From assembly GCA_010405405.1 (NCBI GenBank), contig MU004243.1:801340-865339 (forward strand): a stretch of DNA of 64,000 bases, read 5' to 3'. The notes under the pieces are model-generated. The model was given only the letters and a program-made list of their open reading frames with translations, was not told the DNA's origin and made no database searches. Origin of the DNA: Microthyrium microscopicum (taxonomy: Eukaryota). Position 1 is the stretch's first letter; every line of letters starts with the position of its first letter. This document shows, piece by piece, positions 10,688 to 41,500 of the stretch. The translations under genes and the position numbers were made by a program.

Positions 10688-13600
10688 GGCGACGCCTTGT
10701 TGGCCCTTGGGCCCAGAAGCTCACGAGGTTGGTCAAATCGGTAGCCGAGGGTGGTTGCAGGAGCGGAAGATAGTGCTGTATGGAGGCGAGAAGAGACAGA
10801 AAGCGCAAGAACAGACTCAAGGCGATGCGAGGCTGGGTGCAAGAAGAGATGTGAGGTGAAGAGAGGAGTAGGTGGTGATGGAGTTGGAGATGGAAAGCTG
10901 CGAATGAGTTTTGGAGGGCCGCCTTTTTTGTTTTGGTCCGTGCGCGTTTCTCGAGATGGACTGATATCGACTCGGTATCCGCTAAGGTCTGTTGAGCCGC
11001 TGTTTGATGGTTTTACCCTTTGGCTGCACTTTGTGGATGGGTAGAAGGGTGCTGATGAGTAGTCCTTTGTCTCAACTGGTCTTGTTTCACTTCTTTGGAA
11101 GTGTCCTATCTTCAGACGTTCCCCCGGAGCAGTCACGATGTACTTCCGGTACTACAGCAAGCACCAGCAAACCACCAGGCAGGCGCCAATCCACTGCAAC
11201 TACCTCCTCTACATGGACATGACCAGGAAAACCTCCTTTTGATGAATGATCAATCCAGTAACCAGTTCTTCACGCTCACTGTGCTGGCAAAGACACCCAG
11301 ATTGCTGGCACCAGTCGATTGTTCAAGCTCGCGCCGATGTCTTGACATGCATCATTAGCGTCTGGATGGCATTTGACAGCTTGCACGCCGTGGGGGCATC
11401 ATAATTCTCCGATACAAAACCCTATCTTCTCCCGGTCTTACACTGAACAATCTCTGAGCAGCGGGACTTTTGATTTTGAGCGTGCCCTGCTACCTTCGAC
11501 TCGAGATTTCCATCACAAATCCACCTATCCTACTGGGGTTGGCAAAGAATGACTCTTCTGGCTGCTCGCCTCAGTATTACACGCCGCGCTGCAGATGGAG
11601 CAGAGGTAATTTGATACCATTAGCTCTGGCAGACGGGCTCGATGTACCCCAGCCGCTGACACCACTCATCACTAACACCCTAGCTTTCATCTCTTATCGA
11701 TCCTCGAAGGCAATGAAGATCACAGTGACCAGTACGCACGACGTTGACATCGACGTCGGTGGACTCAAGAAGCGCGATAGCGTCCAACGACGGCGACGAC
11801 AGCATCACAGTCGAGAAGCATGCCACTCACTAAGAGCGGGATTTGTTACTTCTCAAAGCCGAAGAATTACTAGAATATGGACGAGACTCGAGAAGAAAGA
11901 GAAAATGCAAGCAAAGAGCCGGGACTTGTCACCAAGCGCAGGTGTTATGGAGAACCGGCGCTTCTGCTCAGTAGATACTTCAACAACTCGCAAATTGCAT
12001 CGAAAATACCAATTACTTGGCAAGAAGAGCAGCATCGGCTGCCCCATTGTCAAAGAAACTGAAGTCAAACTGGCTATTCCTCTGATTCAACGTCGGGCCG
12101 TTGCTATTATTCCTGCGCAGACCACGACACCAGCGCCCAGCTTTCACGATCCTCAGAATATGTCCAGCTGCTTTATCTTGATCAAAAGACAGGTCTTTAT
12201 ACTCCCAGAAGTTAGAACTAGTGTAAACCGCGGCGCATACGTTTGTCCATTTCAGCCTTGTCCTTCTACCCCTATTCGCCCTGCACTCGCGTGGCTGTCT
12301 ATTTGTCCGGATGCGCTTGCTCTTCTCTATACTTCATAGCCTCAGTGCGCTTTTACCAGCTTGCCCACACGTGTCAGTGAAACAAAAAACCGATAGCTTG
12401 TAGAGCAATGGCTCGGTAGCAAACTCAGTCCTTGTCTTGGCGTTTGCTCCCCCTTTTTCGTTGCGCCATACGTTTGCTTTCTCAGCAACATCAAGCAATT
12501 GTAACAAGCACGCGGGACCTAGTCAAGCATGGAGACTGTGACTGAAAGCTATGGACGCCAGTGACGCTGGATGAACGCATGGAGCGAAGACAGTGTTGGC
12601 GAGCTGGGCTTTCCAACAAATCAGGGGTAAACTAGATATGTTTCGCCGATTGCTCCCCGTGCTATTGCGTCTTGACTACCGTAACCATTGTGCCCGTATT
12701 ACCAACACTTAACCATTGTATACCATTATACGAATCGTAAGGAGCGCTTGCGGGATTCGACTCATGCGGCGGAGAAGTAAGGAAAGGGAGGGTAGAGCTC
12801 GATCGCTACGCGATTTTCCTGAGCTCAGTTAGCAATCTTTCTGCGCAACAGCAAACTAGGCACTTGCGGCGTATGATGAGCTTCAAAGCTTGCTTTCGTT
12901 CGCATCTAACACGCAATACAAAGCCAAAGCGCTGCGGCAAGCGCTTGTACCGTCGTCAACCGCGTCGGCCATTCCCCCTTGCATCACTGAAGCATTGTGT
13001 AAGATAAGGGATACTCTTGCAGTTTTCTATGTATCGAGGTGAATCTCTGATAGTAACAAGATGTAGCAACATGGTCTTGGCCAGAGCAATCTGTCTTCAT
13101 TATCTTGTAACGGTCAACCGATTCAAGCATACGCGGTTTCCTGCTCGTTCTAGCGTCTGCTTGAATTGTTAACCTTCTCTCTCTTTTCCGAAGCTCTTGG
13201 AGCTTCTTATAAATTGCAGCTCGCTATAGCTTGACTTCTAATAGCAGTAGTATTTTGAGATCGTGCTTTGAGCTTTAGAGTGGTAGTATGCGGGTCGCGG
13301 GTCGGTGGACGGGGCCGCGTCCAGTACTGTTTTTCTTCGCTCCTTTTGCTGCACTTCTGTCCGTCAGTGCGCTGGGGAGGCTAGTTTCAAGCTGTAACAG
13401 AGACTTGACAGTAATCCATGTGTCTTCCGAAGGCAGTCCTGCGCAGAAGGAGGTTCAACCAGACTCCGACGTTCATCCGGTCTGTGAAAAGACCAGGGCG
13501 GAGTGCCGCGCGTCGTGAACCTCGAAGTAACGTACGAAATGGGGGATTGAATCGCGCACTAGATTGTTTGCCCGTGACTTGGAGAGCCGCGCATGGTCGT

Positions 13601-16600
13601 ATGAACGTCGGCGGAGCTTCAATGAAGAGGTCGACGGAGTGCCCCTTCGCGCTTGCAGCGATGAAAGCCAGTCCTGATTCCTCAAATCTAAGAAGCAATT
13701 AGGGTGTTATCCGAGGTTCTGACTGGGCAATTCGCGGTGCTTTGTGACTTGATAGTGTTCTTCGATCATGCGCGCACCGCTTCATCTGTTTCTAGCTCAT
13801 TGGTTATCGTGCGGTGGGTTTGTCTCGCTTTGCGATATGCTCTTCGGGCACTGGAAGAAGAATTCTAGTTGTCGCGAGATGGGAATGATGATGGTCCAGA
13901 CGCTCCGATGAGGCCTGGGCGGGATTGTATTGCTGTTTTTTGTAGTTATTTGCTATCGGCGACGGCTTTCTGAAGGGCTCTGTCGCTTCTAAATCCAATG
14001 ATAAGATCAAAGTCTAGGTTGACCAGTCCGAGGGGTGGCTGGCGCGGAAAGAAAGGCTTGTTATGAGGCAAAAGTAGTGCCAGCTCAATGAGTTGACAAA
14101 ATACCTAAGCCGATGCACCAAGTAAGTCTACTGGCTGCCGTGGCCGCGCCTTGGAAGAACAAGGTCCGTATGTTTCTCAAGTCCAGTGGCAGCCATTGTC
14201 GGTGATGGGAGGGCGCGTTTCGTTGCATCCAGTGGCGGAGGATTCCAATTCTCAGCTTCGCCGTACGGCGCAACCTTCTTTTCAGCTGTTTTGCCTTATC
14301 CAGAGGCTCCGTCATCAAAAGGGGGAGAGTTTTGCCATTGTGCGATCGTAGTTTCGAGGTTTGTGGGTATGTTTAGCCTTCGCGCAATATCTTTCTAGGC
14401 GTCTTGGATTGTCGAAGACGGTTCTTTGTGATGCGCTGCTATGTCTGAATGGTCCGTCAACAAAGGAGAGGAGGCCCGGTGGTTATTCGGTTGGTGTCTG
14501 GATGGTCGGAGGTAGTTTTTGCTGCCGTGATGGACTCAACACCATGGTTTTGCCATCCAGGGCAGTCTGCAATGGGTCTCCGATGGGTTCTAAGATGCTT
14601 GAAGGCATTTCAAAAGGAACAGGGGCTTGATGATTGGTAGCTGAGACTTGTTTGAAAGATCGAGTTCGTGCTCTCAATCAATGTGAGCACTTTTTAAAAC
14701 TTCCGGGCCAGGTTGTTATGATATTTCGATGCTCACGGGCTTCTGTTGAGGCTGCATGAGGACAGGGGTGGTGATGGATGGGTCATAGTAGAATGGAAGT
14801 GGCGATTGATGAGGAAATTTTATGAGCTTGGGAAGGCACTTTACAACCACCACTAAGTTATATCTTCAAAACTGAACGTATGCTAGAACAAGAACCTCAC
14901 TTGATTGTCTCGAAGGCTTATTGGGCCAAAATGGTAGAGGCTCGGTCCTTCCCTGTGGACTGGTGTGGCGTTTTCGTAAGGTCGCTATGAGGCTGGGCAT
15001 GCTCACCACCGAACATATCCTCCACACCGGGTATTTGGACTATCTAAGAGAACTCTGGGAACGACTAAAGCTCCGGTATGACTGAATGACAGTTGTTCAG
15101 TGTTCGATGCACGGGCCTACTTCGAGGTGATATGGTCTCCATCAGTGGCGCCTCACTGATCTATCATCAAGAATACAATCATCACAAAGCAAATCCAATT
15201 AGATAATAACATAAGATATCCTGTCCCGAGACTCCTACCGTGATTCCATAGCTTCCAATGGCTCAAAGTGCGTGATACAGGTCCGGGAAGGACCAAATCC
15301 AAAGCTCTCCAAAGCCTCAATCTACTATATGTACACAATCAGTAGCAATTTTCTCTGCGCCTAAATTCGACACATCATTGCACACAAAGTAGTCGAACTA
15401 TAAGGCTTCTGTGTCCGGATCCGATGTCTCGTTACCTGCTATGGCCTTAAATTTTTGTTTTATTACGGCTTAACTTTTGCTCTGTTTGGCATCGCTCTGG
15501 TTCGATTCCGGGCGGCAAAGCTATCTTTTTGTGCTCTGAAAGCTCCAATAAAATCAGAGCAGATGGAGAGTAGGTTATCTTCTTAGCTCATGCTTTTTTA
15601 AATGTGAATTTATTGCTGTACTGGTGGTGGTGACTTCAGGGGGTTGAAGTTGAAGTTGAAAATGTCACGAAATGGTGGCCGACTCTTTGAACTCTACGAA
15701 CTCCTAGCGAAGGTGGTAGGTACTACCACCAATTCTGAGTAAAACTCTATTATTCGCAGCGTAATCAATGGCACAATGAATAGAGAACTGCACGTGTGGT
15801 AAATACAGTATTTGAAGATAGAGAGCGGTAAATAGTAGTCACGATAGTCGTGGAAGTACGCCAATTTTCTCGCTGACTTGGTGTGGGCATATCATTATGT
15901 TTTAACGGAATGACTTAACTTTGGCCCAATTCTGCAGAAAGCTATCATTTTCCATGGCAGAGTATACTGCACGCATCTTGTGGTAAGAAAAGCCATCTGG
16001 CAAAGAAGCACCCCAAGTTCATGGTTGACATGGTGCTGGACCAGTCGTTTCGCGATGTGTTGCGGACAACAGTCAAATTCCCCTGAACTAACTGATGGAT
16101 ATTGGCTGAAATCCATGAATATTGTTCTTTGCACTCGTCGCAGAGTTTCTATCGAGTAACTATGAAGTAACAGCTTGAAAAGTCTGATGAACTAGAACAC
16201 AAAGACCTTTTCACAGCGTACCGGAGTCGTCGGGATCCTCCGAAAACCAGCACAGTCAAAAAGATGTACTACAGTTTTTCAACACTAGAAAGTAAGTCTA
16301 AACTAAAACATTGACCACCATGGAACTAAATTTAACAAAAGAGAAATTTTTCACGATCCAGGAACAGGTGGTATTTACGCAATAGAAATCAAAGTCCGGT
16401 AGGCTTCTAGAAGCCGCATGTCCATATAATTGGTTGATCAGCTCAGGGAACCGACGGCCGCATAGGCTTTGACGATGGCGTGAGGTTAGTGCTATGATGG
16501 CGACAGAGTTTTCATGAACGGTGTGCTCTTGAATTCCGGGGTAAGTAGTGAAGAATCTGCAGGAGACATCGTGATGCCGCAGATGCCGACGGCGGATTTT

Positions 16601-17898
16601 GGGACTTGGCCTTGTTGTGATGAGCACCAGACATGAATCACAGGATACAAGCTTTATGGCGGAGTCCAGACAGTCGGTGCATGAGCTCAAGGAGAGTTTT
16701 CTCATCATTCCGCTTCGCTTGGAGCATACCTGTAGGTAGTGTATGCTTTGGATTGTTTACGCAGCTAATGAACGACTAATCTGCCTTTGGGGTCCTTTTA
16801 CTTCGGACAATTGGTTACTAATGATGTCTGGTGATCTTGTTGGTCGTCGAAAGTGCGCATGGCAAGTACTTCCCTAATTGAGTTACGGCCCGCGGAAAAC
16901 GCGATATCGTGGCGTAAAAGCTCCCCCTGGATGTTTTGGAAAATCGCGGGGAAAGAGCATGCACTTTCATCGCCTCGCCATGTTGATCCCGAAGGAGGTT
17001 TCGTTCTCTTCTCTTTTTGATCGTCGACAAGATTTACATGCACATTCTATGCATTTCGGTCTTCACCTACACTCCAAAGATAATGTAAAGACACAATAGT
17101 CTATTGTAACCGAATCTGATAGGGCTGGAAGCCTACAACGTGTTTCCTTATCGCCCTAGCGTCTAGAATTCCGATTTCAGCTGAGTTTAACCGCCAACCG
17201 GCTTGCAATCTGGGAAATCGGATGTTTAATTGGCGACAATTCGATGTTATTGTACCTTGATTCTCAGCCGCGATTTGAGGCGTAGCTGAAGTAATCCCAA
17301 TTAAGCCAGACGTGTGTGGTTATCTTATACACCGCTACGGATTGAGCCTGCAGACTCAGTTGCGAAGCGTACACGATGCATTTGTTGGCGTCAAACAAAT
17401 GGTCATTTACCGTTTGGATGGATAAAACAACCAATTCGAGAGACTGATGACAAGAGGCCAGTGCAGGATGCAGTTGATATGGCAGAGACTTCAGCCAGCC
17501 CATTCACTTACATAACAGGAACCAATAGCATGGCTGCTTGACACACCAAAACTGCTTCATTGGATTCCCAATGCTTCACCAGCCTTGTCAGTCGTTGCGC
17601 AATTGATGAAGTGGTTTAATCATAAGAATATCTCTTGTCCTGCTTTATATTATTTGAACTTATTCCAACCTACAAAATCCTCAAAATCTCACTTCATACA
17701 TACCATTACCTACTCTACACAACAACCCGAAACTTACCCCACAAAACCCATCGCCGAACGGTTGGCTAGTACGAAACAGATCAAGCTTTTTGGCAACACT
17801 TACCGGCTGCACTTGCCCAAATTGGACTTGGCTACCCATTTTCCTGCGCAGTGACGACTGACGTATCAGAATTTGCCTGTGGCTCAGTACTAGCAAAT

Positions 17899-25743: not shown

Positions 25744-27514
25744 CTATTCGCCGTCATAAGAGACCACTATGACACCATCTTCTTGAAAACTAGACGTATC
25801 CCAACCATTGCCAATATCATATTCATCTGCCGTCGTTGTGCCGTGAAGCGTTTCATAATGCTCCATTTCTCCACAAGCTCCATCTCCCGGCCCTTCATTT
25901 GTGCACTCTGCACCAAGAAGGCCAGCTAAGCGACCACCAATATCGCGTCCCTCAAACCACGCACCCTGCATGTACCCGAAATATGATGAGCTTGTATGCT
26001 CACCCGCAAACCACAGTCGATCAACATTGGCGCGTAGATTCTGGTGCATCTCTAAAGTAGTGCCAGGCGGCCAGTTGGAGAAGGAGCCATATGCCCAAGG
26101 TGTCTGTGTCCAGCGTGGATATTGAATGTAGTCTGGAGTGGGAACTTCAATATCAGGGAACATGGAGCGTAAGACTTCCATGACTTCTGCTAGTGTATCC
26201 TCATTTGATTGTCGTTCCACTCGATAAGACTCACGGTTGACCACCGTCACAAAGAGAATGCCGGAGCCAGGAAAGAAGCCTTCTGTATCAAGTGACTGCC
26301 AGATGGGGTACCAGCCACGTTGAATAGGATCGGCATAGAGGAAAAATTGTATGTCTGCAAGCGCCGAGTCATTTCCCCAAAACTTGTAAGGAAATTGCAA
26401 AAATATCTTGGTGTATGTGCCCATCTGAAACATTTCAATCGCCGTGTGCTTCCAATCTGGCAGAGCTGGCTCGAATGTCACAACGTCGTGTTGGAGGACG
26501 CCAATAGAGAAGGTGCACACTGCGTAGTCGGCTTCAATACAGCTTCCGTCCTCGTTCACCACAATGACCCCTTGATCCGAGTAGCTAATGTTTGTGACTA
26601 TCGTGTTGAGCATAAGTCGCGGGTCATCTTCACTGAGATATAAAGATGCTTCTCCTTTGATCCATGTGTTGTGTCCTCTCTGGTCAATAATGAAATTGTT
26701 CTCGTCACTGTACTGCTTGAATGTAAAGTTGGAAACTGCTGCTCCAAATACCAAAGAACTTTCAGCAGGTGTGTAGGATTGTTCTCCGTCTTGATACTAT
26801 TAGCGAGACGTTGGAAAAGAAGTGATAGTCATGCCTACCCCAGACGAACCACTCCACCGCATCTGCCGCCCTTGGGTTTGGTCTTTGCTCAGGTTTCCAT
26901 CCCACCAGACTCAGCCCTTCCCTGACAGTTCTGTCTTGAAGGTTGTTTAGAAGAATCTCCCCTGCTTCTGCGTCCAACTTATCCATGATAGCTTCGAAAG
27001 CTGCGAGCTCGTCGAGAAAATCGAAGGCGCCACTCTCATTGTATGTCAAGAACTTGTCGAAATCAGAAGGTGTGTTACTGATATTCCACTTCTTCTCGAA
27101 AGTCCAGATTGGATTCTCAGGCCCTCCCGGCGAACCAAGTCCTTGTGCCCAATTGGCACCATATTCCACTATAAAAGGCGCTTCATCTGGACCTTTGCCA
27201 AAGTCTGCGTTGTGAACACGACCGCCAATTGTGTCTTGATATTCGACAATCACAAAATCTGAGATTGACTGATTATGCAGAGCTTGCTGGACAGGAATTA
27301 GCTTGAATCTTTCAGAACTTATGTCAGAATAACTTACAGCAGTAGTAATACCTGCAATTCCCGCTCCCAAGATTGCGACCTTTGTTCGCGTGCATGTATG
27401 CCCATTGTAACTTTGTCTTTTCACTGGCAAAGGTGGAATGGCGACTGCAGATACAGTATGCGCCGTTGCCAACAGTATCGCCGCCGTAGTCAAGCGAGAA
27501 GACAAATATCGCAT
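25744..27514 (-). CDS. Secreted flavin-containing polyamine oxidase (amine oxidase family), 2 introns
   Basis: Signal peptide and KR propeptide, GAGIAG FAD-binding motif, IGGRV, VEYGANW, YTKIFLQFP, YGSFSNWP, WFAGEHT...GYMQGAWFEG. Confidence 0.93.
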
Positions 27515-29515
27515 TTTATTGGGGCTGAGACGGGATAGCTCAGATGTAACAGTGACGACCAAAGTTGGATGTAGATGATAATTGAGCACATGAGTGAATT
27601 TCACCCCTCAAGTATATATACCAAGAAGTTCAGAATGGGCCAGGCCATCGCGAGTAACGAAGCTTGTCCAGACCTAACTGTGTAATCCAATCGAAAGCAC
27701 AATTTACTAGCGAAATTCGTAGAACATGGCAATTGAGGGACAGTGTGACCTTGCGCGTGCTCTTTGAGACCAATCGGTATCCAGCCAGTCCTCGGCTGAG
27801 GACAGCTTTCGCGACGTCTCTGACTAGCCATTTCGGATACGGTATGTGCTTTTCTTGCAGAGCTCGCGTAGTGATACTGCGAACTTTGGCATGTTGATGT
27901 AGATGTAGATGGGAGGAAGTCGGACTCAAGATGCTGCACTAGGCTGAAAGTAGAGTAGCCTTGAAATAGTGGAGACAAGCCGCTTCTATACATAGCCCCT
28001 AAAAACTTAACCTCAACGCCCCACTCAAGATCAGAACCAAATTGATTTAGACAGCCACAAATCTTCATTCTCTCTAGGATATATCGACTCTTTAAGACCT
28101 AAAGCCTGCCGGCATTCTGTAGACGCAAGGCCTGGCCCAAACTTAGTGCGCATCGTCGTCGTTTTGAATGCACAATGCAGATGTCTCTACCCACAGCCAC
28201 ATAACCAACACATCGCCAAAAACAAGAAGGCTCTCCAGAACAAAATCTTCGGTACCAGGGCCCTTAATAGTTAGTATAAGTAGGCAAGCACAAGTACTTT
28301 TTAGCAGCTCACGTCCAGGCGAATCTTTCGTACGATCTACATTGAAGGTACCTACCTAACCTAGTATTCATAGGGTAACAGTCCTTTTGGGTTAATAAAT
28401 TAACCCACTGGCTTCAATGAACATATCACAAAGTGCATTTGGGTAACGTACTGGTCGACGTTCGATTTTGCGGCCCAAAAATTCAACAACAACCGCGACT
28501 TCTTACTTCCCCAGGCCAAACTAGGCACGATCGGATACGGAAGAAAGTATTACAGCTTCACCGCTTTAGACTGCAGCTCTAGTGCGGAGACTCGATGCCG
28601 CAAATAATGAACCCACTACTTTGGATAACCGGACCAAAGTAATGTTTGCCAAGAGGAAACACATTCGCAATCTGACAGCTGAGCGGTCACCCCTCATCTA
28701 CATGGGCATTACTGGTAAATGTATTGTATAGTCTGAAAGCTTTTCGGAACTATCAAAAGAGTTGTCGCCATCATTGCTTGATATCGAGAGATCATACTAT
28801 ATATTACGCCTATCATGAACAGTTCTATCCAATGCCACAGATTATCCGCCCTAGTTTATGCCAGGCGACAGCTTGGTACAAGCGATGCTTAATCTTGAGC
28901 TAAGCAACAACTAATGCAAGATCTTGATGCAGCCAAGAGAATCTATGGTCGCGTGGGTGCGATCTCTACTTTGGGGTAGCTTCCACGATCTTTGTCAACG
29001 TCCAGTTACACCTCCGATTCTGGCCGCGGTAATCACTCTGTCTGGCCTTATTTGGGCTTACTGGAGACTTTGTTTTTTGTGAGATAGTTGGTTTCTGCAC
29101 AGCACACCTTCAAAGCTGAATTCAATTGACATAGGGAGTACACACGAGCCGACTAAGATGCAAATCATTTGGGCCGTTTTGAATCTCTCTTCAAAGTCAA
29201 AGAGCTGGATTGGCTTGGTATTCCAGTGCTTGTCCAGGTAAAGCAGCCAGAAGTTGGAGTCAAGCTTAGTTGCGTCCTTATTGAGCACCCGGATATGCTC
29301 AGTTGTCCAAATCATTGATCACTTCTTAATAACAAACATTATAGTATCAAGACAGGAAAATGGTGGCAGCTGCGCTGAAATAATACTTGGTCTAGAAAGC
29401 GTCAAAGTCGTGTGGTCCAAAAATTTGGAGATTTCGGTAACTTCACTTAACGCCTTGCTGAGACATTCCTGCTGAGATGGATAGCTCGCGGACCGAGTTA
29501 TTTTTTAAGCGAGCA

Positions 29516-32500
29516 TCATCGCCTGTCATGAATCTTTTCATGCCTCTTTCGGTCATTGTCTCGTGTGAATGCTCGTCCACATTCTGTGCAGGCAAAGGGC
29601 TTCTCGCCATTGTGGCTCCTCATGTGAGCATCCTAGAAGTTGTCAGGAACCAAAGGTATATATTTACCTTCGATCTTAATCGTGACAGAATTTTGCTAGG
29701 GTGAGATTTTACCTTGTGCAACTTGCGACTGAAGCTTTTAGCACAGAGAGGACAGATGTGTCTGGACTGTGGTGTTTCTGGCTTCGGCTTGAGCTTGAAA
29801 ACTTCTGACAGGTCCATTTGATCTGGATGATAATCTCTCACATGCTTCTCCAGTTCTTTATTCGAGGTAAATCCAAAATCCGAAAAAGTACAATCCGGAA
29901 CTTCACAGTTCCATGGTCTTCGATGTTTGTCGACATGCTGATCTCGTGCTTTCGCATTGTTGAATCCTTCGTAGAAGTTGAGGCAGTTGATGAACGAGCA
30001 TTTGAATCGTTTGAGACCATAATACTGCCTTAACGCTTTCCCTTCGTCAGTGTATCTTGTAAAACTGTCTGATAGCTTCTCTACGAGCTTTCGGTTCCGC
30101 TGCAAAGCTTTGTTGAGCGATTCAAAACACACTTCATTTCGGGGTATTTGGCCCTTCTCCATGTGTCTCGAAACATGGCTCATGATCAATGTCAAGTCAG
30201 GGTAAACCTCCTCATCTGCGAGATGTGCAAAATCTCTTTTCACACCATGGTGTAAGGTCTGGTCTGGGATATCATCTTGGTAACGCAGCACGAAAGGTGA
30301 CAGTGAGTCGCAAAGTGCCTCCAGGGCCGTCAGGTTGCCTTGGACTTTAAATCCTTCCTTTGAAAGGACTGATGCCAAGGCACTCAGATGCTGAAACCAT
30401 TTCGATACCGCATATTCTTGCATAGCCAACCATCCGGTCATGACGGATACTTGGACCTTGTCATCATCGTGCTTCGAGTCGAAAAAGTCCATGCAGAGAT
30501 ACCTTAGGCAGAGAGTTGCCAGTTGACATTCTACGTCCAGTTCCATAATGTATCGTGTCTGGACAAGATAACTTCTAGTATGTCAGCAAAGTCTATGAGC
30601 AAGGGCAGGAGTGCAGCGTGCAACCGGGCCGTATTGTGCACAAGTTCCAATCTTTCTCCTGGAAGCTCCCGAATCAAGATTCCACATTTTTTTGCTAGCT
30701 GTCCTATGGACCCTATTGCTTCGCTGCAATGGAGGTTCTCATGCTCATCAGTCAAATCTAATCCAAAAGCACACTGAAGTTCATATCTCTTCAGTGGGCG
30801 TTTGGCACAGATCATCCATCCAAGAAGTCTTGTGATTTGGCTCCAGACTCTGGAAGTATGCTTCCACTGTCGCTCAAGACGACTCAAGATTCTCTCATAC
30901 CTGGAATGAACTCAGTGACTTTATGACAGTAATAACCAATGGGGATCAATTTGCAGGGGACGTACGCATCTGCAAGTTTAGAGGGAAACTTATCATCGTC
31001 TAGCTCTGCTACCACGTTGATTTTGCAATCTTGTGCATCAAGATTTTCTAGGACTAACGTCGCGTAGAGAAACATACCTGCAACATGTCAGCCCATATAT
31101 TCCAGAGCCATTTTCAAATGTAGATGTATACCATTCGCTCTTGTAGACACGAGTTTTTTGATACACTCTGATTGCTGGATTTCGAGATCGAATTTAGCCT
31201 CAATTCGACCCACGCGCTCGTTGACGAAAGATTCAATCTCCTCTTTGTTATCTTTCTGCTGGATGGCAAGATTTTGGATGGAGAAGCTAGGCCGTTTTTG
31301 AGAACTCTTATGTAGTGCCTCAGCAATATCTGGTTCACACTGGCTGGCAATGAGCAAACGAAAACTTCCAGGCTGCTCTTCCATGTGCTCTACAACTTCA
31401 GCCAGAAATGATAGCAAAAGCTTTCGTTCCTTCGAGGGGGACTCATCCAGGCCATCTATCATAACAAAATGCTTTGAGATTCTTTCGCAAGAGATTCTAA
31501 ACAGACCTTCGGCAAGCTGATGAGATTTTAAAGTTTCTTGGCCACTCGAGTTGATCTTGCTGAAGAAAAAAGGTACTAGGCTTCGTTCCTGGCTTACCAT
31601 ATGAACCAATAGGCCAGTAAGAATTGAAAGGTAGCTCGTTCTGTTGGGGTCAGATGCATTGCAGTAAAAGAACGAGGTTTTAAACTCCACTCTCTTCTGG
31701 CACTCTTCAACGATCCGAGATACTAATATTGTTTTGCCTAGAAGCAACAGATTAGCGCCACTTTCGAGGACTATTGATATAAGTACTTGATCAGCTCACC
31801 TGCTCCTGGTATTCCATGCAACCACACTACGGGATTGGATGGTGTATCGTCTTCCATCCAGCTAAGGATTCTTTGATCACGCATTATCCAGTCGCCGCTG
31901 CCAGGATTGTTCTTCCTGACGCCACAGAAATATTCGTGGTCCGAAATCTGGACGTAGGTCTGCTTCTGCATACCTTTATCATCCGCGGGCCGCGGAATAG
32001 TCAACCATTCCAACACCCGCCGGTACTTTTTATACATCTGATCTTCCTCATCCTTGTGTAGTGTCATGAGTACCGTCTCTCTTTCCAACTCATAAGTGTT
32101 GAGTTTCTCCAAAAGCTGCAAGCTGATATCTGATCTACTATCGGCGTCTACCAGTCGGGAGAGTAACTCGGTCGAGTTATTGTGACGTTGTAGGTTTCCT
32201 AGAATTCCTTGAAACCTACAGTCTCTGAATTGCTTCCAATTTGCTTTGAAGAGCTGCTTCCAACCGCGGTAAGAAAATAGACGCTGGGCCTTGATGTGAA
32301 ATTCGAGTATGTCCGCGTAGAGCCAGCATGTTACTCGATGCATGATAGGGTAATTGTTGAAAAGATCCTCTTTTCCCGGTAAGAATGACAGCTTTTCACC
32401 AATGTCCTCATATGCGCTCAGCAGCGCATCAAAAATTTCTGAGATGTGACTAGCTTTCTGTCTTTCTTTTCAGTTCTTTTATTACCCACCATCATAATGC

Positions 32501-33569
32501 TACAAGGTGGAGTTGTACTCACCACAATCATGTCCTTCATGGTACCCCATATACATGTTGCGAGGTCCTCAAAGCCAGATAGACTCGTGGTTATCTTCAT
32601 AAAGACGTCCATGCCTTTAAAAAAGTTCTCCAGACGGGCAAGCCTCATTAGTGTCTTCTTGCCTTCTTGTTCTCGCTGCAATTGAAGAATTGTTTGCTTG
32701 ACATTCTTATATGTGATTTTACGAAATGCTGTGTGCTCTTGATATGAGACCATACTCATTAGATTGCTGTTTATCTTTTGTATCGCGGTCATGACCTGGC
32801 TTAGATCGATTTGGATTTTTCGATGATGTGCAGGGTAGTTTTGTTTGATTTCCCTGAGCAAACGTTCATTGGCATGCTCTCTGCCTTCGCCGTAGTTCAT
32901 AGGCAATGAGACTCCCATGATGCCCATTAGCGAGTAAGCCATGTCTTCTCCACGTCTAGTTCGTCTGGTTCCTACCCACTGGAATTTATGTATAGGGTCA
33001 TAGTCTGATAAGGATCCGCCTTTTAAGATACCGACAGGAAGACCAGTTGCCTCACATATCAAGTCACTCAAAGAATGTCTGTCGCCAAGGAGTATGCCTT
33101 CGACCGAAAAGAACTGCACGGTACTGGGAGCAATAAGTTCTTGAAGTGTCCAGCCTCTGGTGAACCATCTGCTTCGTAGAAATGCCTTCTCCCATGGTTG
33201 ACCACGTTTCGCGTGGCCTTTATCGCTGCCATATTCCACGTCTGTTAGAGATACATAGCATACTTTGGCTTCCTGATACCATCGAAACATTGAAGTGATA
33301 GCCTCGCTTAATTCGACCAAGTTCTCTTTCTGAATACAACAAGTGTCTATCCAAAAGAATTCAAGATTATCAATTGAAGCTTGTTGGGCGCAGAAGCTGA
33401 TCTTGTCGTACCCGGGCTTTTTCTTTCCTGTGCCGTCCTTAACATCTCTGTATGTAACTTCATCGTCATCGTCGCCCCAAGTGTGTGAAAGGATAGCATA
33501 AGGCGGTCTATCTTTCTCTTCGTACGTACACAAATTTGCTCTGCCGTGGTGGTAGTCAAGAAGATGCAT
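29516..33569 (-). CDS. NLR-like STAND protein: HET domain + helical N-terminal domain + NACHT + winged helix + four C2H2 zinc fingers (multi-exon)
   Basis: HET motifs [29 protein letters not shown] and [13 protein letters not shown]. Helical domain [21 protein letters not shown]. Walker [12 protein letters not shown] (split by an intron at ~31738-31799), Walker [30 protein letters not shown]. Zinc fingers CSFINC..H..H, CEVPDC..H..H, CPLC..(intron 29633-29712)..HMRSH, linker [27 protein letters not shown]. Stop at 29516-29518. Confidence 0.88.
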
Positions 33570-33928
33570 AGCTTGGATGCTTTGTCTCCATCAAGGTTCC
33601 AATCTGAGCAAGGTGATGTGAAGGAAGAGAAGCAGTCATGTAGACCTCTGATGATGTCTGACCATGCTACGAGCTGCAATGAAAAGTACCATAGCGCGCG
33701 ACGGGGGGTAATGGAAATGGTGTTATGAGGATGTTTTCATAATTTCCAATAATGTTTAGCAAAAACATAGCACTTCTCGGGAGAGGGAGAGAAATTATAG
33801 ATTAGTTTAGAGTTATTATTTTCCTAATAAGGCCTATTTTTAGGCTAAAAATAATGTATCTTAGAAAAACGCTCTTTATACCCTCTAAAAAAAGTGGTAA
33901 TGTAGGTCAAAACCGGCATCACTTTATC

Positions 33929-34232
33929 TTTTTTTTTTTTTTTTTTTTTTTTTACATTTCTTACATTCGAACTGCGAATTAGGCTAGCACGGTATTATAT
34001 TACGACGAGAGTTACGGGTCTATAATTCTACTACGATCGTGATTTACTAAGGAGAATTGCCTGTTTGTTGTATATATGGCAGGTACGGTAAGGTCTTAGC
34101 AGTCCTTATGTTTACTCCTTCCAAAATGCCTTTCGTAGCTTCTTCCTTTTATGCTAAAGATGCTTAAAGTAGAAGAAGATAGACTTTAGCTAAACATAGG
34201 TAAAAATAACGCTAGATAAACAAATAGATCTC
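33929..34232 (-). mobile_element. Probable 3' remnant of a non-LTR retroelement (poly-A tailed), RIP-degraded
   Basis: T25 run at 33929-33953 (poly-A on the minus strand) adjoins AT/TpA-rich sequence with stop-riddled frames. No TSD was identified and the boundary is approximate. Confidence 0.4.
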
Positions 34233-35138
34233 GTCACGAAGTCTTCATAATAACTTCATAGCCTGTAGAAACATCGCTGGCAATGATTTCTATTACCCCC
34301 CCTACCACGCTAAGGTAGGTAGTCTCAAAGTCCAAGATGGTAGGTAGGCCGATACTAGAATCGGAGCGAGAACAAGGAACTAGTACCATTCGCGGTGTTC
34401 AATCCGGGAGCTCACCGTGTTCAGCTTATTACGTTACTATGTAGCGTCCTCAGCCTCAATCAGCATTCAACACCCCGGTATGTTTGTCCTTGGCCTCCGC
34501 AAGGCATAACCCTGAGACTGCAGCGCAAGCCTGCCCGTGCGACCTACTGGCAAGAGAGTCATTTCCGGTCAAACCAAGCCACACGGCTGCAAGAATACTT
34601 GGTAGGTGGATCAAAGTAAGGCAGCAAATGATTGTTGCGCGCACATGCACAAGCGGGGCATGGTACGTTACCGTATTCCTTGACATCGGCTAGAAAAAGC
34701 AAAGCACATGAAGCTGAAATGAATCTTTTCGAATCCTCTCAGAGAGCGCATAGCGTCTTCGACTACCTTCAGCAAGGCTGCTGGTCAAGCCATGTTCTTT
34801 CATGAATTCCAGTCAGTGCATGCTCACCTGATATACCGGATTGCCAACTGGGATATGCTCAGCCTCCGTCTCCACGCCCCTTGAAACTACCTAGCTAAAA
34901 GATACATGGGCAGGACTTCCGGGCTCTGAGATGAGTAGCGACTCGACAAAACACCCTTACGTCAGTAGAACTTCTTGGGTTTCGATTTCAGACTTGAGTT
35001 GTTAGTTACTCCTCATGAAGCTCCAGGTTAGACCCTCACCCATGTTAGTCTATTATGAGCCGTCATAGTCAGCCCAGTCTTGGAAGAGTGCTAGTAGATT
35101 CAAATTTCTAGCGCCAATATCAATTGTTGATAGCAGAT

Positions 35139-38100
35139 ATGACTTCGCTAAAGAGAATTCTGAATGATGAGGATGATGAGCCAAGGGCAGACGCGGAACG
35201 ATACGAGCACAGCTCCAAGGTCCATCGGTTCACGGATGCAGACATGTACAATCAATCTCCATCTCTGGAGCCATACACAAGGTGAGTAGCGCTTGAGACA
35301 TACTTCTAGTGACCAAACTGACTGAAAGACAGCATAGAAAGCCTTTGGCATGCCCCAGTAGACCATGAAACCTACTATCTCCCCGACACTTGGAACAGTC
35401 AATCAACCGGGCAGTATGATAACAATGGCACCTTGAAAGACATGTCCTTTGGAGCTTTACCGCTCCTGGAAGAATATGTCTTTTCACCAGAGCCAATGCC
35501 GGTTCAGTTTGTCCAGGATTCAACTCCGCACCACGAACAACAGATAAATAATGATTTTGCACCAACGTTTCCAGATAATCATGACCTTGCGCTGTTGGAG
35601 CTGAAGCAATCGCTGCCGGTGGGAGAGTCACCGACATTCACGAATAACTTCAGTGCCAGCGCCTCCACCGTAAACGGCACGCCCGAGGTCCAGAATAACA
35701 AGGATATCTGCTTTGGCATGGTATCGCAAACCACTGTACGTCTGATAGGGGACATGCAACAGCTAGACCATAAGCTTCAGAACACAAAAGGCGCATATGG
35801 ACATGGCTTTACAGGTTTTGGTCTCCAGCAGGCAGATGACGGGATTGCTCTACATTTTTTTGATGACGGCACCTTGTTTGGTTCCACTAATGCGCATTTT
35901 TCACAAGGCTTCGCGAGAGTTCTCAAGGTTTATCCAATCCGACTGGAAGCGATTACTCACATACCCAGCGTAAGGGAACGTATTGGCCGAGCTCAAAAGG
36001 CGACCGATGCAACCGTACGCGTTGATGTCTTCGTGTTCGGTCTAAAGAGTGATGCCTCTATGGTTGGCAAACAGCTCTCTGACGGAAAGATCTGGCTACA
36101 GAAGCCGGACTTCTTGCCTCGTGACAAGGAGTATTTCAATCCTCAAGTCCTAAAGCTCGAGGGGTTTGAAAACATAGAAACAGATCAGCCTGACACGCTC
36201 GATGTCCCATCAGGTCAGAGTGGTCTGGAACGAGATGATGAAGGATTTCAGGATGCAGTCAAAGACGTCTTCGACAAACTTACGCGAATTGAGCAATTGG
36301 AGCGAGTGGACCAAGATCAGCGCGTTAGAACAGAACTTCTCCAGTAGGGCATAGTGACTTAACATGGATTTTTCAAGCTCACTTACATTGTTCTAGGCAT
36401 CAAGAAGAAGGTTTAGGCTTTATGATCCAACGGGAAACAGGACAAATTCCAGACAAATATTTACTGTGGGAAGAGATAAAAGATGGCGACAACATACGGT
36501 GTGTCTTGTTCCCTGGTTTTGAGGAAGGAATCCACTAATATCATCCAGATATCGACATGCTGTCACAGGTGCTGTCTCGCACATCAGGCATCCCGAATCA
36601 GGCGGTGGCGTACTTGCTGATGATATGGGAATGGGCAAGTCCTTGTCGATTCTATCGCTCATAGCAAAAACATCACATTTGGCAGACGAGTGGCTTTACA
36701 ACAGCCAGGAAGGAGCAAGCACAATGAAATGCCATAGCAGGGCGACGTTGATCATTGTCTCATCGGCTCGTAAGATTCACTGGGCATCAGAAATTATACC
36801 ACAATTTTCAAAACTAACTCTAGTAGTGCTGATAAACGAATGGATACATGAAGTCGACAAGTATGTATAGAGTCCCAATATTGGCATTATAGAAGCTTAT
36901 TATGACAAGACATCTTGATGGATCCATCAGTTTCGTTAAATACCACGGCACAAAACGTAGAACGCTGAAAAACAGACTACAGACGGCTGATATTGTCCTC
37001 ACAACATATAATACCTTGGTCCAAGATTTCCATCAAAATGGTCGACGAACACCCCACAGCGTTCTCCACGAAATCAACTTTTTCCGTGTTGTTCTTGATG
37101 AAGGTATGGTTCGATTGAAATGATCATTCAGTTCCCTGACTTCTTATAGCACACATCATTCGTCGCAAAGGTACACTATTCAATAAAGCTGTATCTGAAC
37201 TTTCTGCAAAGTCTCGCTGGTGTCTTACTGGTACACCAATTCAAAATAAATTCGAGGATATAGGTGCTCTTTTTGCATTCATCCGGGCTCGGCCTTTCCA
37301 CAACATTGGCATGTTTCGTCAGTTCATTTCAAATCCTTTTGATGACAGTAAAGAGCGAAGAACCGAAGCCATCAGGCGGCTGGCCACGCTCATCGACGCG
37401 CTTTGCATTCGCCGCACTAAAGATCGCCTTAAATTACCTGAGGCACAAGATTCGCGCGTAGAACTGATCTTCTCGGATGCTGAACAGAGGCAATATACAA
37501 AAGCTGTGGGTGATATGAATAGAAATCTCCGGCAACAAGTCGGCAGCTCAAAAAGCATGCATGACTTTGGACTATTTCAAATCCAACTACAGCTCAGGAT
37601 TTTATGCAATCACGGCACCCATCAAGACCCTTTTGCTTGGAAGCAAAACGCATGGATGGACATGCGCCAGTACGCGTTGACATCGCTGCTAGCCACCAGT
37701 GAGGTCGTCTGCTCTATTTGTAATGAAATCATTCCCGTCACTTCTGCGCAGAACATATATCGTATGCATGGTGATGAATGCAGGCATGCCATTTGCGATG
37801 GATGCTCAGACTTGAAAACTGGTCATCAGCAAAACTTATTTTCATGTCCGATTTGCATGCAAGTCAAGTTACTCAAAGATGTAGAGGAGCGCCCAGCAGC
37901 AAAGAAAATTCTCAACGCCCAATATTTTCGTGAGAATGGATACTCTACCAAAATCACTCAGCTTGTCAAGGATCTTACAAAGAATTTGAATGAGAAGAAA
38001 AGGTAATTCTCATGCAATCAATGAGCAATAAGAATATATGCTGACAGTGGCTAGCATTGTCTTCTCCTGCTGGACAAGGTCTCTCGAATTGATCGGTCGA

Positions 38101-38567
38101 TATCTGACAGACGCAAGCATAACTTTCGAGCGTATCGACGGCGGGATCTCACTGCAGGAACGTGAGCGCATTCTCAATAAATTCGCAACTCACAGAGACC
38201 TGCATGTCCTCATCATGACAACCGGGACAGGCGCATATGGATTAAACTTGACTGCTGCAAATCGGATTTTTATCATTGAGCCGCAGTGGAACCCTGCGGT
38301 TGAAAATCAGGCTATTGCGCGTGCCGTTCGTTTGGGCCAAGAAGAGAGTGTGCAAGTAGTACGATACGTGATGAATGGAACTGTTGAACAGGTTGGTATC
38401 AGTGAAACTTCATTCAGGTGTAGATAACTGACTTGAGGCAGGCAATGAGGTCGCAGCAAAACAAGAAGCTAATGATTGCGGGGATTCTGGATCAAAGTGC
38501 GAATGCGGCTGCTGACGAGCAGGAATCGATAGCGGAAAGCTCACATATCATTGTGGAAAATGATTGA
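35139..38567 (+). CDS. SNF2-family helicase of Rad5/Rad16/HLTF type with embedded C3HC4 RING (multi-exon)
   Basis: MTSLKRILND start, with intron 35282-35332 restoring the frame. GGVLADDMGMGKS (Walker A), IVLTTY, VVLDE|AH, RWCLTGTPIQN, RING CSIC...CRHAICDGC...CPIC, HELICc GLNLTAANRIFIIEPQWNPAVENQAIARAVRLGQ. Last exon 38442-38567. Confidence 0.92.
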
Positions 38568-41500
38568 AAAGATGTTGGCTTCATGTAAGTTCCAGTCGGC
38601 TAGTCCGATGGGATCTGTTCACACAGGCTTATGATACAAACCTAGAAGATGAGAGATTTGGAGTTGAGGTAATAGTTCGACAGTGATGAATCATGATTGG
38701 TTTTGTTCACTCGGTCCTACAATACAATACGATGACCAAGGCTAGCGGTCTACAACTCCCCCATGCTTCTGATGAAGGTTTTGTCTTTCTCAGCAGCTAC
38801 ACCAGCTCATCGACGCAGACTATCAGCAGCAAGCCAACTGGCTGGTGGGCGCTAAAACCTGCAATGAAAACATCGTGTCGCCGCAGTTTCGCTTCATTGT
38901 CTCAGGTTTTCTAACTTCCTTCCGATACATAACAGGACAACCATAGTCTGATCGTGAATGAATTCGGACAGCGAATAACCACTCGAGTCTGGACCCATGC
39001 TTATGGTCTGTCGGCCAGGTGAACGCTAAAATTGCAGTGCTTCGTTGTAGATCCCAGTACCCAAAGTGACGATCACTTCCTTTGCATAGCCAGCAGCAAT
39101 CCTGGGTGAAAACGAGGCAACGAATACCCATGCCTTCATCGAAAGGATCTCCTACGGGGATGTCGATAAATACCAGTATCATACACCATACCTTAAGTAC
39201 TTGGTGCTATCAATGAATACTTGCATATTACGCTAGGCGGTTGATCTCCGAACGCCATACCTTCGAAGACTGAAGCGTATAGTTTCTAATTGAACATGTT
39301 AAGATCTTTATTAGAAGTAGGGGTAAGAATACTAATTATATCTTTCTTAGAGTTTTATCAATCGTAGTTAAGTCTCTATGAACTAGGAAAGACCGATCGG
39401 GCTCTGAAAAATGCTGGGTATGGGGAGTACTTCACAGTAATACTCTGCGAGATTGAGATAATGCTCCAGAACAGCCAGCCGCAAAGAATTCCTTTCTTCT
39501 ACCGAGGTCGCTTAATGACTAGAAAAGCGCCCTTTCGATCACAGTTCGATAAAGCGATTTGCTATGGAGCTTAGAATTGCAGGTACTGATAATGAAATTT
39601 CTGCTACGCTATTTGCGACATTCGTGAGATTGATTGCCTAGAGAGAGATGTGATCGGTGAGGCGGATTCATGAAGACAGCGAATCTGCGGCGGTATAGTT
39701 GATATTAATCTCACCACGATCTGTGAAATAGACTCTATCTGGTCGACAGATGTACTTAACTCTGCGTTCCGACACCAGAAAGCCTTTCGAGTCGATATTT
39801 GTCCTATTTAAACCTTCTTGGGGTGGTAAAGGAGAATAACTTCGTCATATATTCCAGATTGTCCGTCGACTTCTTCTTTATCAAAATCCAAGAACACTCT
39901 TTTAACTACAACAGATTCTTTCTTTTCGTAAAATGATACTGCGTTGAGAGTACTTTCTAGGTAACCTAGTACCATTTCTTTCGAACACTGTTCAAGGCCC
40001 TAGCGAACCATTAAAGTTCTCGCTCCGTACTTTTCATAAGCAGGATCTGTTGCGACAAAATTAAGTCCTTTATTTTGTCAGTTCTCTTTACTAAAAACTA
40101 ACAAGCCTCAAGATAACTCACGATAGCATAGAGTTGATGACAGTGTTGACTCCTAAACCTTCTCAATTATACCGTGCCACCGGGTTAGGACCGCCAAGTT
40201 GACTCCCTTGGACCATGTTTACTCTGGCTCACTGTACTCTTCCTCTGGTAGTACTGGTGAAACCAATTTTGCAAATCCAATGACCTCGCTGTGACCTGTG
40301 TTATCATTTTTGGATGTGATAGCACGGACGACGAGAACCGTGATCTTCGGATCTTCGATATCTGCCCGCGTTTCCTATATTAGGCTCGGTTTCAACCCTT
40401 CAAGAGCCTCTGCTGTTGGAAATTGCGCCTTAAACAGTACCTATGTTAGAGCCAAATGCAGTCATGTGAATTTCAGCAATGCGAGCTGCATCGTCTGCCG
40501 TCGCCTCGGAGAGTTTGAGCTGCATTGTGAATGTAAGAGCTGAAGACTATACTTTTCACTAGCAGGACAAGAGCAGAATGAAGAAGATAACTGATGTCGT
40601 GAGTGCTCAAAACTGGAAAGGCGCGAGCGCAGTGGACACTTCGAAGGAACACAGGTCATAGGGCAGCTGCGCCTCAGACTGGTCGTATACTGACATATGA
40701 GGTAGGTATGTACCTTCGCGACCAGCATGCAACTTCTACAATCATATGGGGCTAATCGCAGATGTCTTGCTCTAGTCGTTGGATCAGCCTGTAATATATA
40801 CTTGTAATAGTATCGTAGGAGTACAATGGAGATCTAAACCATAAAGATGAAGTCAATGTTGGGCAGACGTCTCCACACAGTTCAGTGTCAATAGACTAAA
40901 AGGAGTGGGCTGATGCCTTTCGACAATCTGAGCAGCTTGAGGACACAAAAAAGTCGATATTTTGGAAGACCAAAAGTCAACGTTGGTCTGTGAGCCCACA
41001 TGGCAAATCGCAGCTATAAGTACACGGACTGTATGTTGAGCTATTCGTGATATTGAAAATGGTTTGATGTTTTTGGTGTACCGTAGCATTTTCGCTACCA
41101 GACTGCCACACCTAATTCACAAAATTACCATCATACTCTTTCCAAGATGGATAGTGTCATTGTCAACTGCACGACGATATTGAACTTCCATTTGTCTATT
41201 TTCCCGAGCAAAAGTACCCCTGAATGATGCGGCTAATCCATAATTGTGCCGAGTCTAGTCCAGAATGAGACGACCCAGGAATACGGACAAGCTTATCAGT
41301 CGCCCAACATTGGTCCAAAGGTTAGTCGCGTCAAAATGGGAAAACGTGTTGTCCCACGCTATTTCCCCTAGTGTTTGGGTTAAGCGTGTTTTAGCTCTGG
41401 CTTTGGTGTCACTTTTTGCGCAATCTTTTTGCCCACACTTTTCTGATCGTGACTTTTTTCAGCAGGATTGCTTGATATTCTGATAGAGGTTGTCCTGATA

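Follow-up and report, generated by a model that had tools for sequence, protein, structure and literature searches.

In plants, RRS1-WRKY and RPS4 form a head-to-head NLR pair with an integrated DNA-binding domain. In bacteria, MalT and AfsR join a STAND switch to a DNA-binding output, and anti-phage systems of the DISARM type contain SNF2. The Rad5/HLTF enzymes (PDB 6l8n for K. lactis Rad5; 4xzg and 4s0n for the HIRAN domain of HLTF) present a HIRAN fold, an SNF2 motor and a RING inserted before the Helicase_C lobe. Fungal NWD2/HET-S-type pairs consist of a STAND/NACHT gene beside a conserved partner, and this pairing is kept across species; some genomes carry a partner as a fusion to the NLR, others as a separate adjacent gene (PMC3321046). 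A survey of Sordariales lists 57 NLRs with zinc-finger domains (52 C-terminal, 34 of C2H2 type), discusses them as possible integrated decoys or nucleic-acid binders, describes non-canonical C-termini as a minority among fungal NLRs, and mentions head-to-head sensor/helper NLR pairs (PMC12258605). Here we describe a locus of Microthyrium microscopicum in which an NLR-like gene and the gene of a Rad5/HLTF-like helicase stand head-to-head. Both genes have several exons, and 1569 bp separate their ATGs. The locus was studied within a stretch of 64,000 nucleotides of contig MU004243.1 (assembly GCA_010405405.1, positions 801,340 to 865,339 of the forward strand), which we call the window.

The locus resembles each of these systems in part. 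Like RRS1/RPS4, it places an NLR with a C-terminal zinc-type (here predicted) DNA-binding domain in a divergent pair that shares a promoter region, but the partner gene does not encode another NLR, the families are not related, and a decoy logic is hypothetical here. Its likeness to MalT, AfsR and DISARM is at the superfamily level; the arrangement in question is eukaryotic, consists of two genes and includes a RING. With its HIRAN-like predicted fold, the helicase repeats the domain order of Rad5/HLTF, yet it has no Pfam HIRAN match, scores 188 bits to Rad5, belongs to a separate family and is paired with an NLR. Compared with NWD2/HET-S, the partner is a 1006-aa HIRAN-SNF2-RING enzyme instead of a small pore-forming or lipase-type effector, the NLR ends in a helical domain and C2H2 fingers instead of WD, ANK or TPR repeats, and both partners evolve slowly. 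The clusters and head-to-head pairs of the Sordariales survey join two NLRs, and neither "SNF2" nor "helicase" occurs in its main text (PMC12258605). In our full-text literature searches, no paper tied an NLR/NACHT gene to a fungal SNF2 or Rad5-like gene, and none mentioned DUF7708. What appears to be new is a fungal NLR with a dedicated HIRAN-SNF2-RING neighbour; an NLR with a neighbouring partner gene is an arrangement of a known kind. We consider it likely, from the comparisons that follow, that this linkage is kept by selection, and we lean slightly towards regarding NLR and helicase as old functional partners that filamentous ascomycetes inherit together, and not as chance neighbours.

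First, we looked for the pair in named genomes. A word-based search with the C-terminal exon of the NLR gene, covering 844 candidate proteins of 504-2000 aa, returned four matches: the window's own protein, P0003 from Eremomyces bilateralis, P0004 from Aulographum hederae, and P0005, a 1704-aa model marked "partial" from Chaetothyriales sp. CBS 132003 with SNF2 and Helicase_C as precomputed domains. Along P0005, stretches similar to the window helicase come first (HIRAN-like part 54%, SNF2 part 68% and Helicase_C part 70% identical), followed by stretches similar to the window NLR (DUF7708 part 51%, C-terminal part 55%) and, last, by an unrelated Longin/synaptobrevin gene. Judged from these alignments, P0005 is a merger of at least three genes, encoding the helicase, the NLR and a Longin/synaptobrevin SNARE. 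Its local matches to the helicase are at the level of the closest relatives, and the next listed matches reach at most 48%. Since nothing else in P0005 (Longin, synaptobrevin and another 500 residues) matches the 64-kb window, the pair alone is common to the two loci, and the Chaetothyriales locus comes from what we take to be a different fungal class. The model skips helicase residues ~330-503, the RING, and the NACHT-WHD region of the NLR; these parts may be mis-spliced or degenerate in that genome. In Aulographum hederae, the NLR P0004 and the helicase P0157 are each recorded on a contig of 439021 bp, which points to a pair on the same scaffold.

Metagenome assemblies provided further loci. 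A first scan, seeded with the NLR alignment, produced 373 pattern matches and no relative. A second scan, seeded with the helicase only, matched 592 stretches and gave 111 relatives; 80 loci were kept, and all of them were searched with the NLR by tblastn. NLR matches were found in four of the 80. A family-level helicase match (E <= 1e-40) is present in ten loci, the other 70 matching more weakly and only in the helicase core. Five of these ten extend at least 3 kb upstream and can be judged (L001, L008, L049, L053 and L071), and the remaining five have less than 700 nt of upstream sequence. In four of the five judgeable loci (L001, L008, L049 and L053), a homologous NLR gene lies directly upstream on the opposite strand. 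L049 and L053 apparently represent one taxon, which leaves the pair in three of four taxa. The ATG-to-ATG distances are 488, ~606 and ~614 bp, and the encoded NLRs contain DUF7708, NPHP3_N, a winged helix, and the helical and zinc-finger module. The flanking genes of these pairs are unlike each other and unlike those of the window. The best matches of L001 fall in one helicase subfamily and those of L008 and L049 in another; with the subfamily of the window added, the pair occurs in three deeply split lineages. The recurrent adjacency of homologues that had been suggested as a check on the sequence-only reading is therefore present in the window, in P0005 and in four of five judgeable loci that were found with the helicase alone.

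These loci bear on the simplest alternative, that two large, expanded families came to lie side by side by pure chance. The families are indeed large, with 64873 SNF2 matches at E <= 1e-3 and extensive NLR repertoires (PMC12258605), but in the window, in P0005 and in four of five judgeable loci it is always one and the same NLR family, with its rare C-terminal module, that neighbours one and the same helicase family. We regard chance adjacency as extremely improbable, and by these comparisons it is already contradicted by P0005 and the metagenome loci.

The two partners also diverge in parallel. Pairwise identities of the NLR C-terminus and of the helicase core sort six taxa into the same groups, with 54-68% (NLR) and 63-71% (helicase) identity within groups and 29-35% and 34-45% between them. 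The identities of the two proteins correlate with r = 0.94 over 15 non-independent pairs, a value that is descriptive only. Congruent divergence of the partners, which had been proposed as a check on the sequence-only reading, is thus seen as a descriptive, identity-based pattern in six taxa.

Linkage of this kind might be kept without any cooperation of the two proteins, either because one compact promoter serves both genes or because an ancestral arrangement was simply inherited. Short-spacer divergent pairs are the most conserved gene pairs in fungi (PMC2871058), the spacers here measure 0.5-1.6 kb, and the L071 helicase has no partner. On the other hand, adjacency persists despite a change of orientation in Chaetothyriales, and it is kept down to ~30-37% protein identity while all flanking genes differ. 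Moreover, conserved divergent fungal pairs with short spacers tend toward functional relatedness and are related in function more often than others (PMC2871058). We consider linkage without cooperation quite unlikely. From the comparison of loci, the NLR and the helicase probably work together. A complex prediction for the C-terminal 326 aa of the NLR and the N-terminal 385 aa of the helicase, run without alignments or controls, scored 0.01.

We then turned to the two proteins. The NLR-like protein consists of HET, DUF7708, NACHT, a winged helix, a helical domain and four C2H2 fingers, in this order, as judged in the main by Pfam runs on its exon pieces and on the deposited partial model P0002. 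The HET match (PF06985, E 5.4e-12, 46.7 bits against a cut-off of 22.5) spans profile positions 1-89 of 146, and the translation contains ILSHTWG, WIDTCCI and RGWTLQE, which we take to be the three conserved HET blocks. PF24809 (DUF7708) stays below its cut-off in the window NLR (E 1.1e-3), exceeds it in P0003 and P0004, and reaches 2.2e-11 in L001. The NPHP3_N/NACHT match has an E value of 2.6e-18 on the exon; on P0002, the values are 4.8e-31 for NPHP3_N and 2.6e-7 for NACHT. With both Walker motifs readable in the translation, the gene is predicted to encode a NACHT-type P-loop NTPase. The helical domain has no Pfam match, and an AlphaFold2 (AF2) model of moderate confidence (pLDDT 70, 7-sequence alignment) found no PDB match at E <= 1e-3. 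Pfam detected no WD40, ANK, TPR, LRR or other repeat family in the NLR. Because the helical domain and the four fingers replace the superstructure-forming repeats, we classify the predicted protein as NLR-like with a non-canonical C-terminus.

The fingers, recognized in P0002 by zf-C2H2, zf-H2C2_2 and zf-C2H2_jaz, are the most conserved region of the NLR (65-75% identity versus 44-58% for DUF7708 and NACHT). Fingers 3-4, which are of the classical C2H2 type with an HNGEKPF linker between them, are 73-75% identical, compared with 44-48% for DUF7708; fingers 1-2 are non-classical, and their Cys and His residues are invariant in all seven aligned homologues. The fingers look DNA-binding by prediction, and their conservation pattern is unlike that of a fast-evolving, diversifying receptor. 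According to the Atlas, whose clusters we use as leads only, the helical and C2H2 module seems to occur also as stand-alone ascomycete proteins of 240-370 aa (clusters of 92, 52, 76 and 71 members; feature scores 0.91-0.99) and in NACHT clusters of 111 and 132 members. As a lead, the Atlas suggests a few hundred members for the architecture of NACHT plus zinc fingers.

Such a protein could also be a STAND-type transcription regulator of the divergent helicase gene or of a DNA-damage regulon, with no role in immunity or death. Bacterial MalT and AfsR and mammalian CIITA are analogues. The classical tandem fingers 3-4 with their linker, as the most conserved part of the NLR, would suit this function, and so would the short divergent spacers in four loci, the lack of HET in orthologues other than the window NLR, and the stand-alone proteins suggested by the Atlas. 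A common regulatory site is harder to find: no 7- to 10-mer is common to all four divergent spacers, and sharing among three of the four stays within the range of shuffled sequences. In addition, the Chaetothyriales copy is tandem, DUF7708 occupies the position of the effector domain in fungal NLRs, and the gain of HET in Microthyrium suits a death output better than a transcriptional one. We therefore find a purely regulatory pair unlikely.

The HET domain deserves separate consideration. The sequence-only reading had described the protein as a HET-NACHT-C2H2 NLR. These domains are all present in the window gene, but HET is absent from the six other family members, so that the fusion occurs in one of seven (the window copy; models or ORFs, open reading frames, examined). 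The NLRs of the metagenome loci start with DUF7708, without HET. By this comparison, HET is not part of the conserved module and was added in Microthyrium microscopicum. In two metagenome loci, a HET ORF lies beside the NLR/helicase pair: L008:678-3542 (+) encodes 955 aa (E 2.4e-31) and L049:9753-12446 (+) encodes 898 aa (5.5e-28). L049 also contains a second NLR-like gene at 14949-17206 (+). No HET gene lies within 10 kb in L001. The neighbouring HET genes of L008 and L049 and the fused HET of the window have the generic HET core alone in common. With assumed genome sizes of ~40-60 Mb, a random 20-kb interval would hold a HET gene in roughly 5-13% of cases, which is a rough estimate. The number of HET genes per genome is 135 to 324 (bioRxiv 10.1101/721753). 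A HET gene beside the pair in two of three loci is suggestive, nothing beyond. The distribution, fused in the window and neighbouring in L008 and L049, parallels the pattern of partners that are fused in some genomes and adjacent in others (PMC3321046).

An intact HET domain fused to an NLR, together with HET genes beside the pair in L008 and L049, also evokes an allorecognition (het) locus, in which the HET-NLR and the helicase would be co-adapted polymorphic partners that kill mismatched heterokaryons. Neurospora and Podospora have HET-domain or NLR genes paired with a linked partner. Two Colletotrichum members of the helicase family, P0214 and P0246, carry the source name "heterokaryon incompatibility protein" (a name only); Pfam finds SNF2, Helicase_C and a weak RING only in both, and the name may derive from HET neighbours or from fused models elsewhere. 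Conservation across classes holds for both genes of our pair, and the slowest evolution is seen in the putative sensor part; known het genes show the opposite pattern. HET is also missing in six of seven family members. We judge an allorecognition locus to be highly unlikely.

The helicase consists of a HIRAN-like fold, SNF2, RING and Helicase_C. Its designation as Rad5/16-type SNF2-RING in the sequence-only reading was right, and the modelled HIRAN-like fold allows the more precise description of a Rad5/HLTF-like architecture. Pfam found no HIRAN in the helicase at E <= 1. A Foldseek search of the PDB with the AF2 model of this region (pLDDT 84, 61-sequence alignment) gave HLTF HIRAN in each of its 12 best rows (E 1.5e-4 to 1.1e-3, prob 1.00, TM by target 0.63-0.72; 12-15% identity), with Rad5 from K. 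lactis further down the list. The HIRAN domain of HLTF and Rad5 binds DNA 3' ends. In the ATPase, all 55 family members have G446, G448, K449 and H570, and at least 90% of them keep D567, E568 and A569. The RING ligands C756, C759, C779, H781, C784, C787, C801 and C804 are likewise invariant in all 55 aligned members, with Pfam RING models below threshold (E 0.79 in the window helicase, 1e-4 to 1e-2 in relatives). By these alignments, ATPase motifs I/II and the RING ligands are intact. The first 12 helicase residues (35139-35174) follow a consensus, M-x-S-L-K-R-L-L-N, that is kept in most aligned family members, precedes ~150 poorly conserved residues, and is absent from the start regions of L001 and L008; it could serve as a short signal for targeting or binding.

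By sequence, the closest relative of solved structure is Rad5 from K. lactis (E 1.5e-54), to which two longer relatives score 240-251 bits compared to 188 bits for the window helicase. The family comprises proteins of ~850-1060 aa with automatic names that include rad5c, RAD5B and HLTF, and a long, fully supported branch separates it from the longer relatives (1100-1240 aa). A search with the helicase gave 388 matches at E <= 1e-60; among the 120 listed, the closest are from Coleophoma cylindrospora (63%) and Aulographum hederae (61%). In a tree of 53 rows picked from 267 proteins, four close helicases form one clade (SH-aLRT 100, stem 0.65) apart from clades that broadly follow taxonomy, and this clade presumably mixes three fungal classes. 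The possibility raised with the sequence-only reading, that the helicase is simply the single-copy RAD5/RAD16 orthologue, is not what this tree suggests, as far as the presumed classes can be relied on. Pfam detected no HET or NACHT fusion in three helicase homologues with long extensions, in P0214 and P0246, or in 12 longer relatives, one of which has a Pfam HIRAN.

The gene models (Table 1) were scripted or built by hand from the raw sequence and then compared with RNA contigs and deposited proteins. The contigs came from one public run (X1), labelled "RNA?" as a guess, and were aligned to positions 27500-40500. We treated them as RNA-derived because, at GT..AG boundaries, they leave out 13 of the 14 introns that we had predicted, namely introns 1-4 and 6 of the six in the NLR gene and all eight of the helicase gene. 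Both genes are thus present as spliced RNA contigs in a single run. One contig joins the HET exon to exon 2 and extends 147 nt upstream of the NLR ATG, to 33716. In the spacer, RNA depth is 4.8 at 34010-34443 and climbs to 176, then 835, toward the helicase ATG. With the RNA-supported intron 4 (36770-36826, 57 nt), the helicase translation equals the deposited 1006-aa P0001 at every residue. NLR residues 388-1225 align without gaps and with 99.9% identity to the deposited model P0002 (838 aa), which begins at residue 388 of the RNA-supported ORF and omits HET and part of DUF7708. From ~aa 270 onward, the NLR is colinear with its orthologues P0003 and P0004. The stop codons are at 29516-29518 (NLR) and 38565-38567 (helicase). 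Both genes are real at the positions listed, and the sequence-only reading had placed their divergent ATGs, at 33569 (-) and 35139 (+), exactly to the base.

NLR intron 5 is the point at which the description of both genes as intact has to be qualified: full frames can be modelled and 13 of 14 introns are spliced, but the NLR frame needs the removal of intron 5, which the RNA retains. No splice joint was found there, and one contig piece runs unbroken over 29712-30897. The computed product of the retained form has 930 aa with the order HET-DUF7708-NACHT-WHD and stops past the winged helix, without the helical and zinc-finger module. Removal of the intron is needed for the full NLR, because the orthologues are colinear across the junction. 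RNA contigs can demonstrate that a form exists but not that it is missing; there may therefore be a spliced minority form, and the retention could be regulated. The NLR-bearing contig runs 1.5 kb past the NLR stop (28044-29631). A plus-strand GT..AG intron at 28280-28373 in this region implies that a convergent transcript without a long ORF overlaps the NLR 3' end. Just past the helicase stop, another plus-strand intron (38585-38645) is followed by transcription onward to 39582. The segment 38585-39582, which contains no Pfam domain, is either a spliced 3' untranslated region or a small downstream gene.

Table 1. Features of the NLR/helicase locus, in positions of the window
Feature	Position	Strand	Description
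NLR-like gene	29516..33569	-	7 exons, 6 GT..AG introns of 50-80 nt, 1225 aa
NLR coding exons	33569-32523, 32457-31800, 31737-31132, 31077-30966, 30900-30625, 30574-29713, 29632-29516	-	script model
HET domain	32784..33506	-	aa 22-262; same exon as start of DUF7708 region; Pfam PF06985
DUF7708-type N-terminal helical domain	31915..32753	-	aa 273-530, across intron 1; Pfam PF24809
NACHT/NPHP3_N NTPase	31328..31896	-	aa 537-705; Pfam and motifs in translation
Walker A GIPGAGKT	31733-31818	-	interrupted by intron 2
Walker B hhhhDGLDE	31439-31480	-	from translation
Winged helix, GPIID_WHD type	30559..30791	-	aa 845-905; Pfam PF22939 3.7e-8 (2e-8 on P0002)
NLR intron 5	30575-30624	-	50 nt, weak donor GTTGCA; retained in RNA contig
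C-terminal all-helical domain, no known family	30019..30558	-	aa 906-1085, ~180 residues, between winged helix and fingers
Four C2H2 zinc fingers	29519..30018	-	aa 1086-1225; intron 6 inside
Divergent spacer	33570..35138		1569 bp; T25 run at 33929-33953; largely transcribed as 5' leaders
Helicase gene, Rad5/HLTF-like	35139..38567	+	9 exons, 8 introns of 46-57 nt, 1006 aa
Helicase coding exons	35139-35281, 35333-36343, 36397-36498, 36549-36769, 36827-36860, 36910-37103, 37150-38002, 38055-38391, 38442-38567	+	
HIRAN-like fold domain	35703..36179	+	aa 172-330; fold match, not Pfam
SNF2 ATPase N-lobe	36398..37616	+	aa 386-724; Pfam SNF2-rel_dom 7e-59
Motif I DDMGMGKS	36619-36642	+	
DEAH	37097-37154	+	
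C3HC4 RING between helicase lobes	37710..37856	+	aa 756-804
Helicase_C lobe	37959..38337	+	aa 839-947; Pfam 3e-18

The surroundings of the pair are unremarkable. The window also contains genes for an Arm-repeat protein, an LDB19 arrestin, a cutinase, a GFA protein, an amine oxidase, a WD40 protein of the HIR1/CAF1B type, SRP9 and a trypsin-like peptidase. L008, like the window, has an amine-oxidase gene near its NLR, but the two show no similarity, so synteny extends no further between these loci. We could not reproduce the AT-rich, transposon-like remnants that the sequence-only reading had reported between and beside the genes. The GC fraction drops to 0.376 in the single 500-bp bin that holds the T25 run and is 0.41-0.50 elsewhere; no transposon domain was found among window ORFs of at least 100 aa, and no repeats flank the pair above chance matches of 20-25 nt.

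Several observations weigh against an old functional pair. A shared bidirectional promoter alone could keep the genes adjacent without cooperation of the proteins. Divergent orientation, part of the layout first proposed, recurs in the four metagenome loci, but the Chaetothyriales model has the genes in tandem (co-directional), so a shared promoter is not strictly kept. L071 contains a multi-exon helicase of the family (10001-12684) with no NLR within 10 kb upstream; this helicase is a paralogue or comes from a lineage in which the partner was lost. Its neighbours encode an O-methyltransferase, a GRDP-like protein and a 2OG-Fe(II) oxygenase. The close relationship of L008 and L049 (68% identity for both genes) reduces the count to about three independent lineages. 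The checks put forward with the sequence-only reading otherwise turned out mostly in favour of that reading. Joint presence, also put forward as a check, holds for three of the four close-NLR species, which have the rare helicase subclade as well; Eremomyces bilateralis has the NLR P0003 and no close helicase among the 120 matches listed. Conversely, Coleophoma cylindrospora has the helicase P0156, and the one word-based search of proteins of 504-2000 aa returned no NLR from this species. Finally, the dominant NLR transcript here retains intron 5, and its product would be devoid of the zinc-finger module.

If the NLR and the helicase do form a functional pair, its parts point to DNA: the NLR has tandem C2H2 fingers, and the helicase combines a HIRAN-like fold with an SNF2 motor and a RING. 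The two proteins would share one DNA substrate. As a nucleotide-driven sensor or switch, the NACHT protein with its zinc fingers would monitor or recruit the translocase/E3 ligase, and the signal would exit via the N-terminal DUF7708. In Microthyrium microscopicum, the added HET would couple this switch to cell death. From the domain content we infer DNA binding, contact between NLR and helicase, and surveillance or death as output. The surveillance and cell-death interpretation is tentative, and we give it less than an even chance. In this version, the NACHT switch would read a DNA structure, for example replication intermediates that are stalled or foreign, or mobile or viral DNA that invades the cell. 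The HIRAN-SNF2-RING partner would expose or process the DNA, with the chromatin motor as co-sensor or guardee. The switch would then oligomerise and fire an N-terminal death or signalling domain, which could be DUF7708 generally, HET in Microthyrium, and adjacent HET genes elsewhere. That the pair represents a widespread, undescribed module for DNA-directed surveillance in filamentous ascomycetes is a still more doubtful extension.

For genome annotation, the locus may serve as a guide: the deposited NLR model lacks the HET exon, and the Chaetothyriales model wrongly fuses three genes. For the protein family, the implications are broader. The usual descriptions of fungal NLR-like genes portray them as fast-evolving, restricted to single lineages and lacking known ligands; the family in the window has conserved orthologues. 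It combines a conserved NLR C-terminus of the DNA-binding type with a fixed partner from a well-understood class of enzymes, the Rad5/HLTF fork remodellers and E3 ligases. The pair thereby offers a concrete way to test what is sensed or controlled by one family of fungal NLRs, and links STAND switch machinery to DNA metabolism. Should the regulatory reading be true, the NLR would act in a eukaryote as a transcription switch of the STAND type. Should the pair serve surveillance or death, fungi would have a form of innate immunity directed at nucleic acids that is new in kind, and DNA surveillance by this pair would be a categorically new fungal counterpart of nucleic-acid-sensing NLR/STAND immunity.

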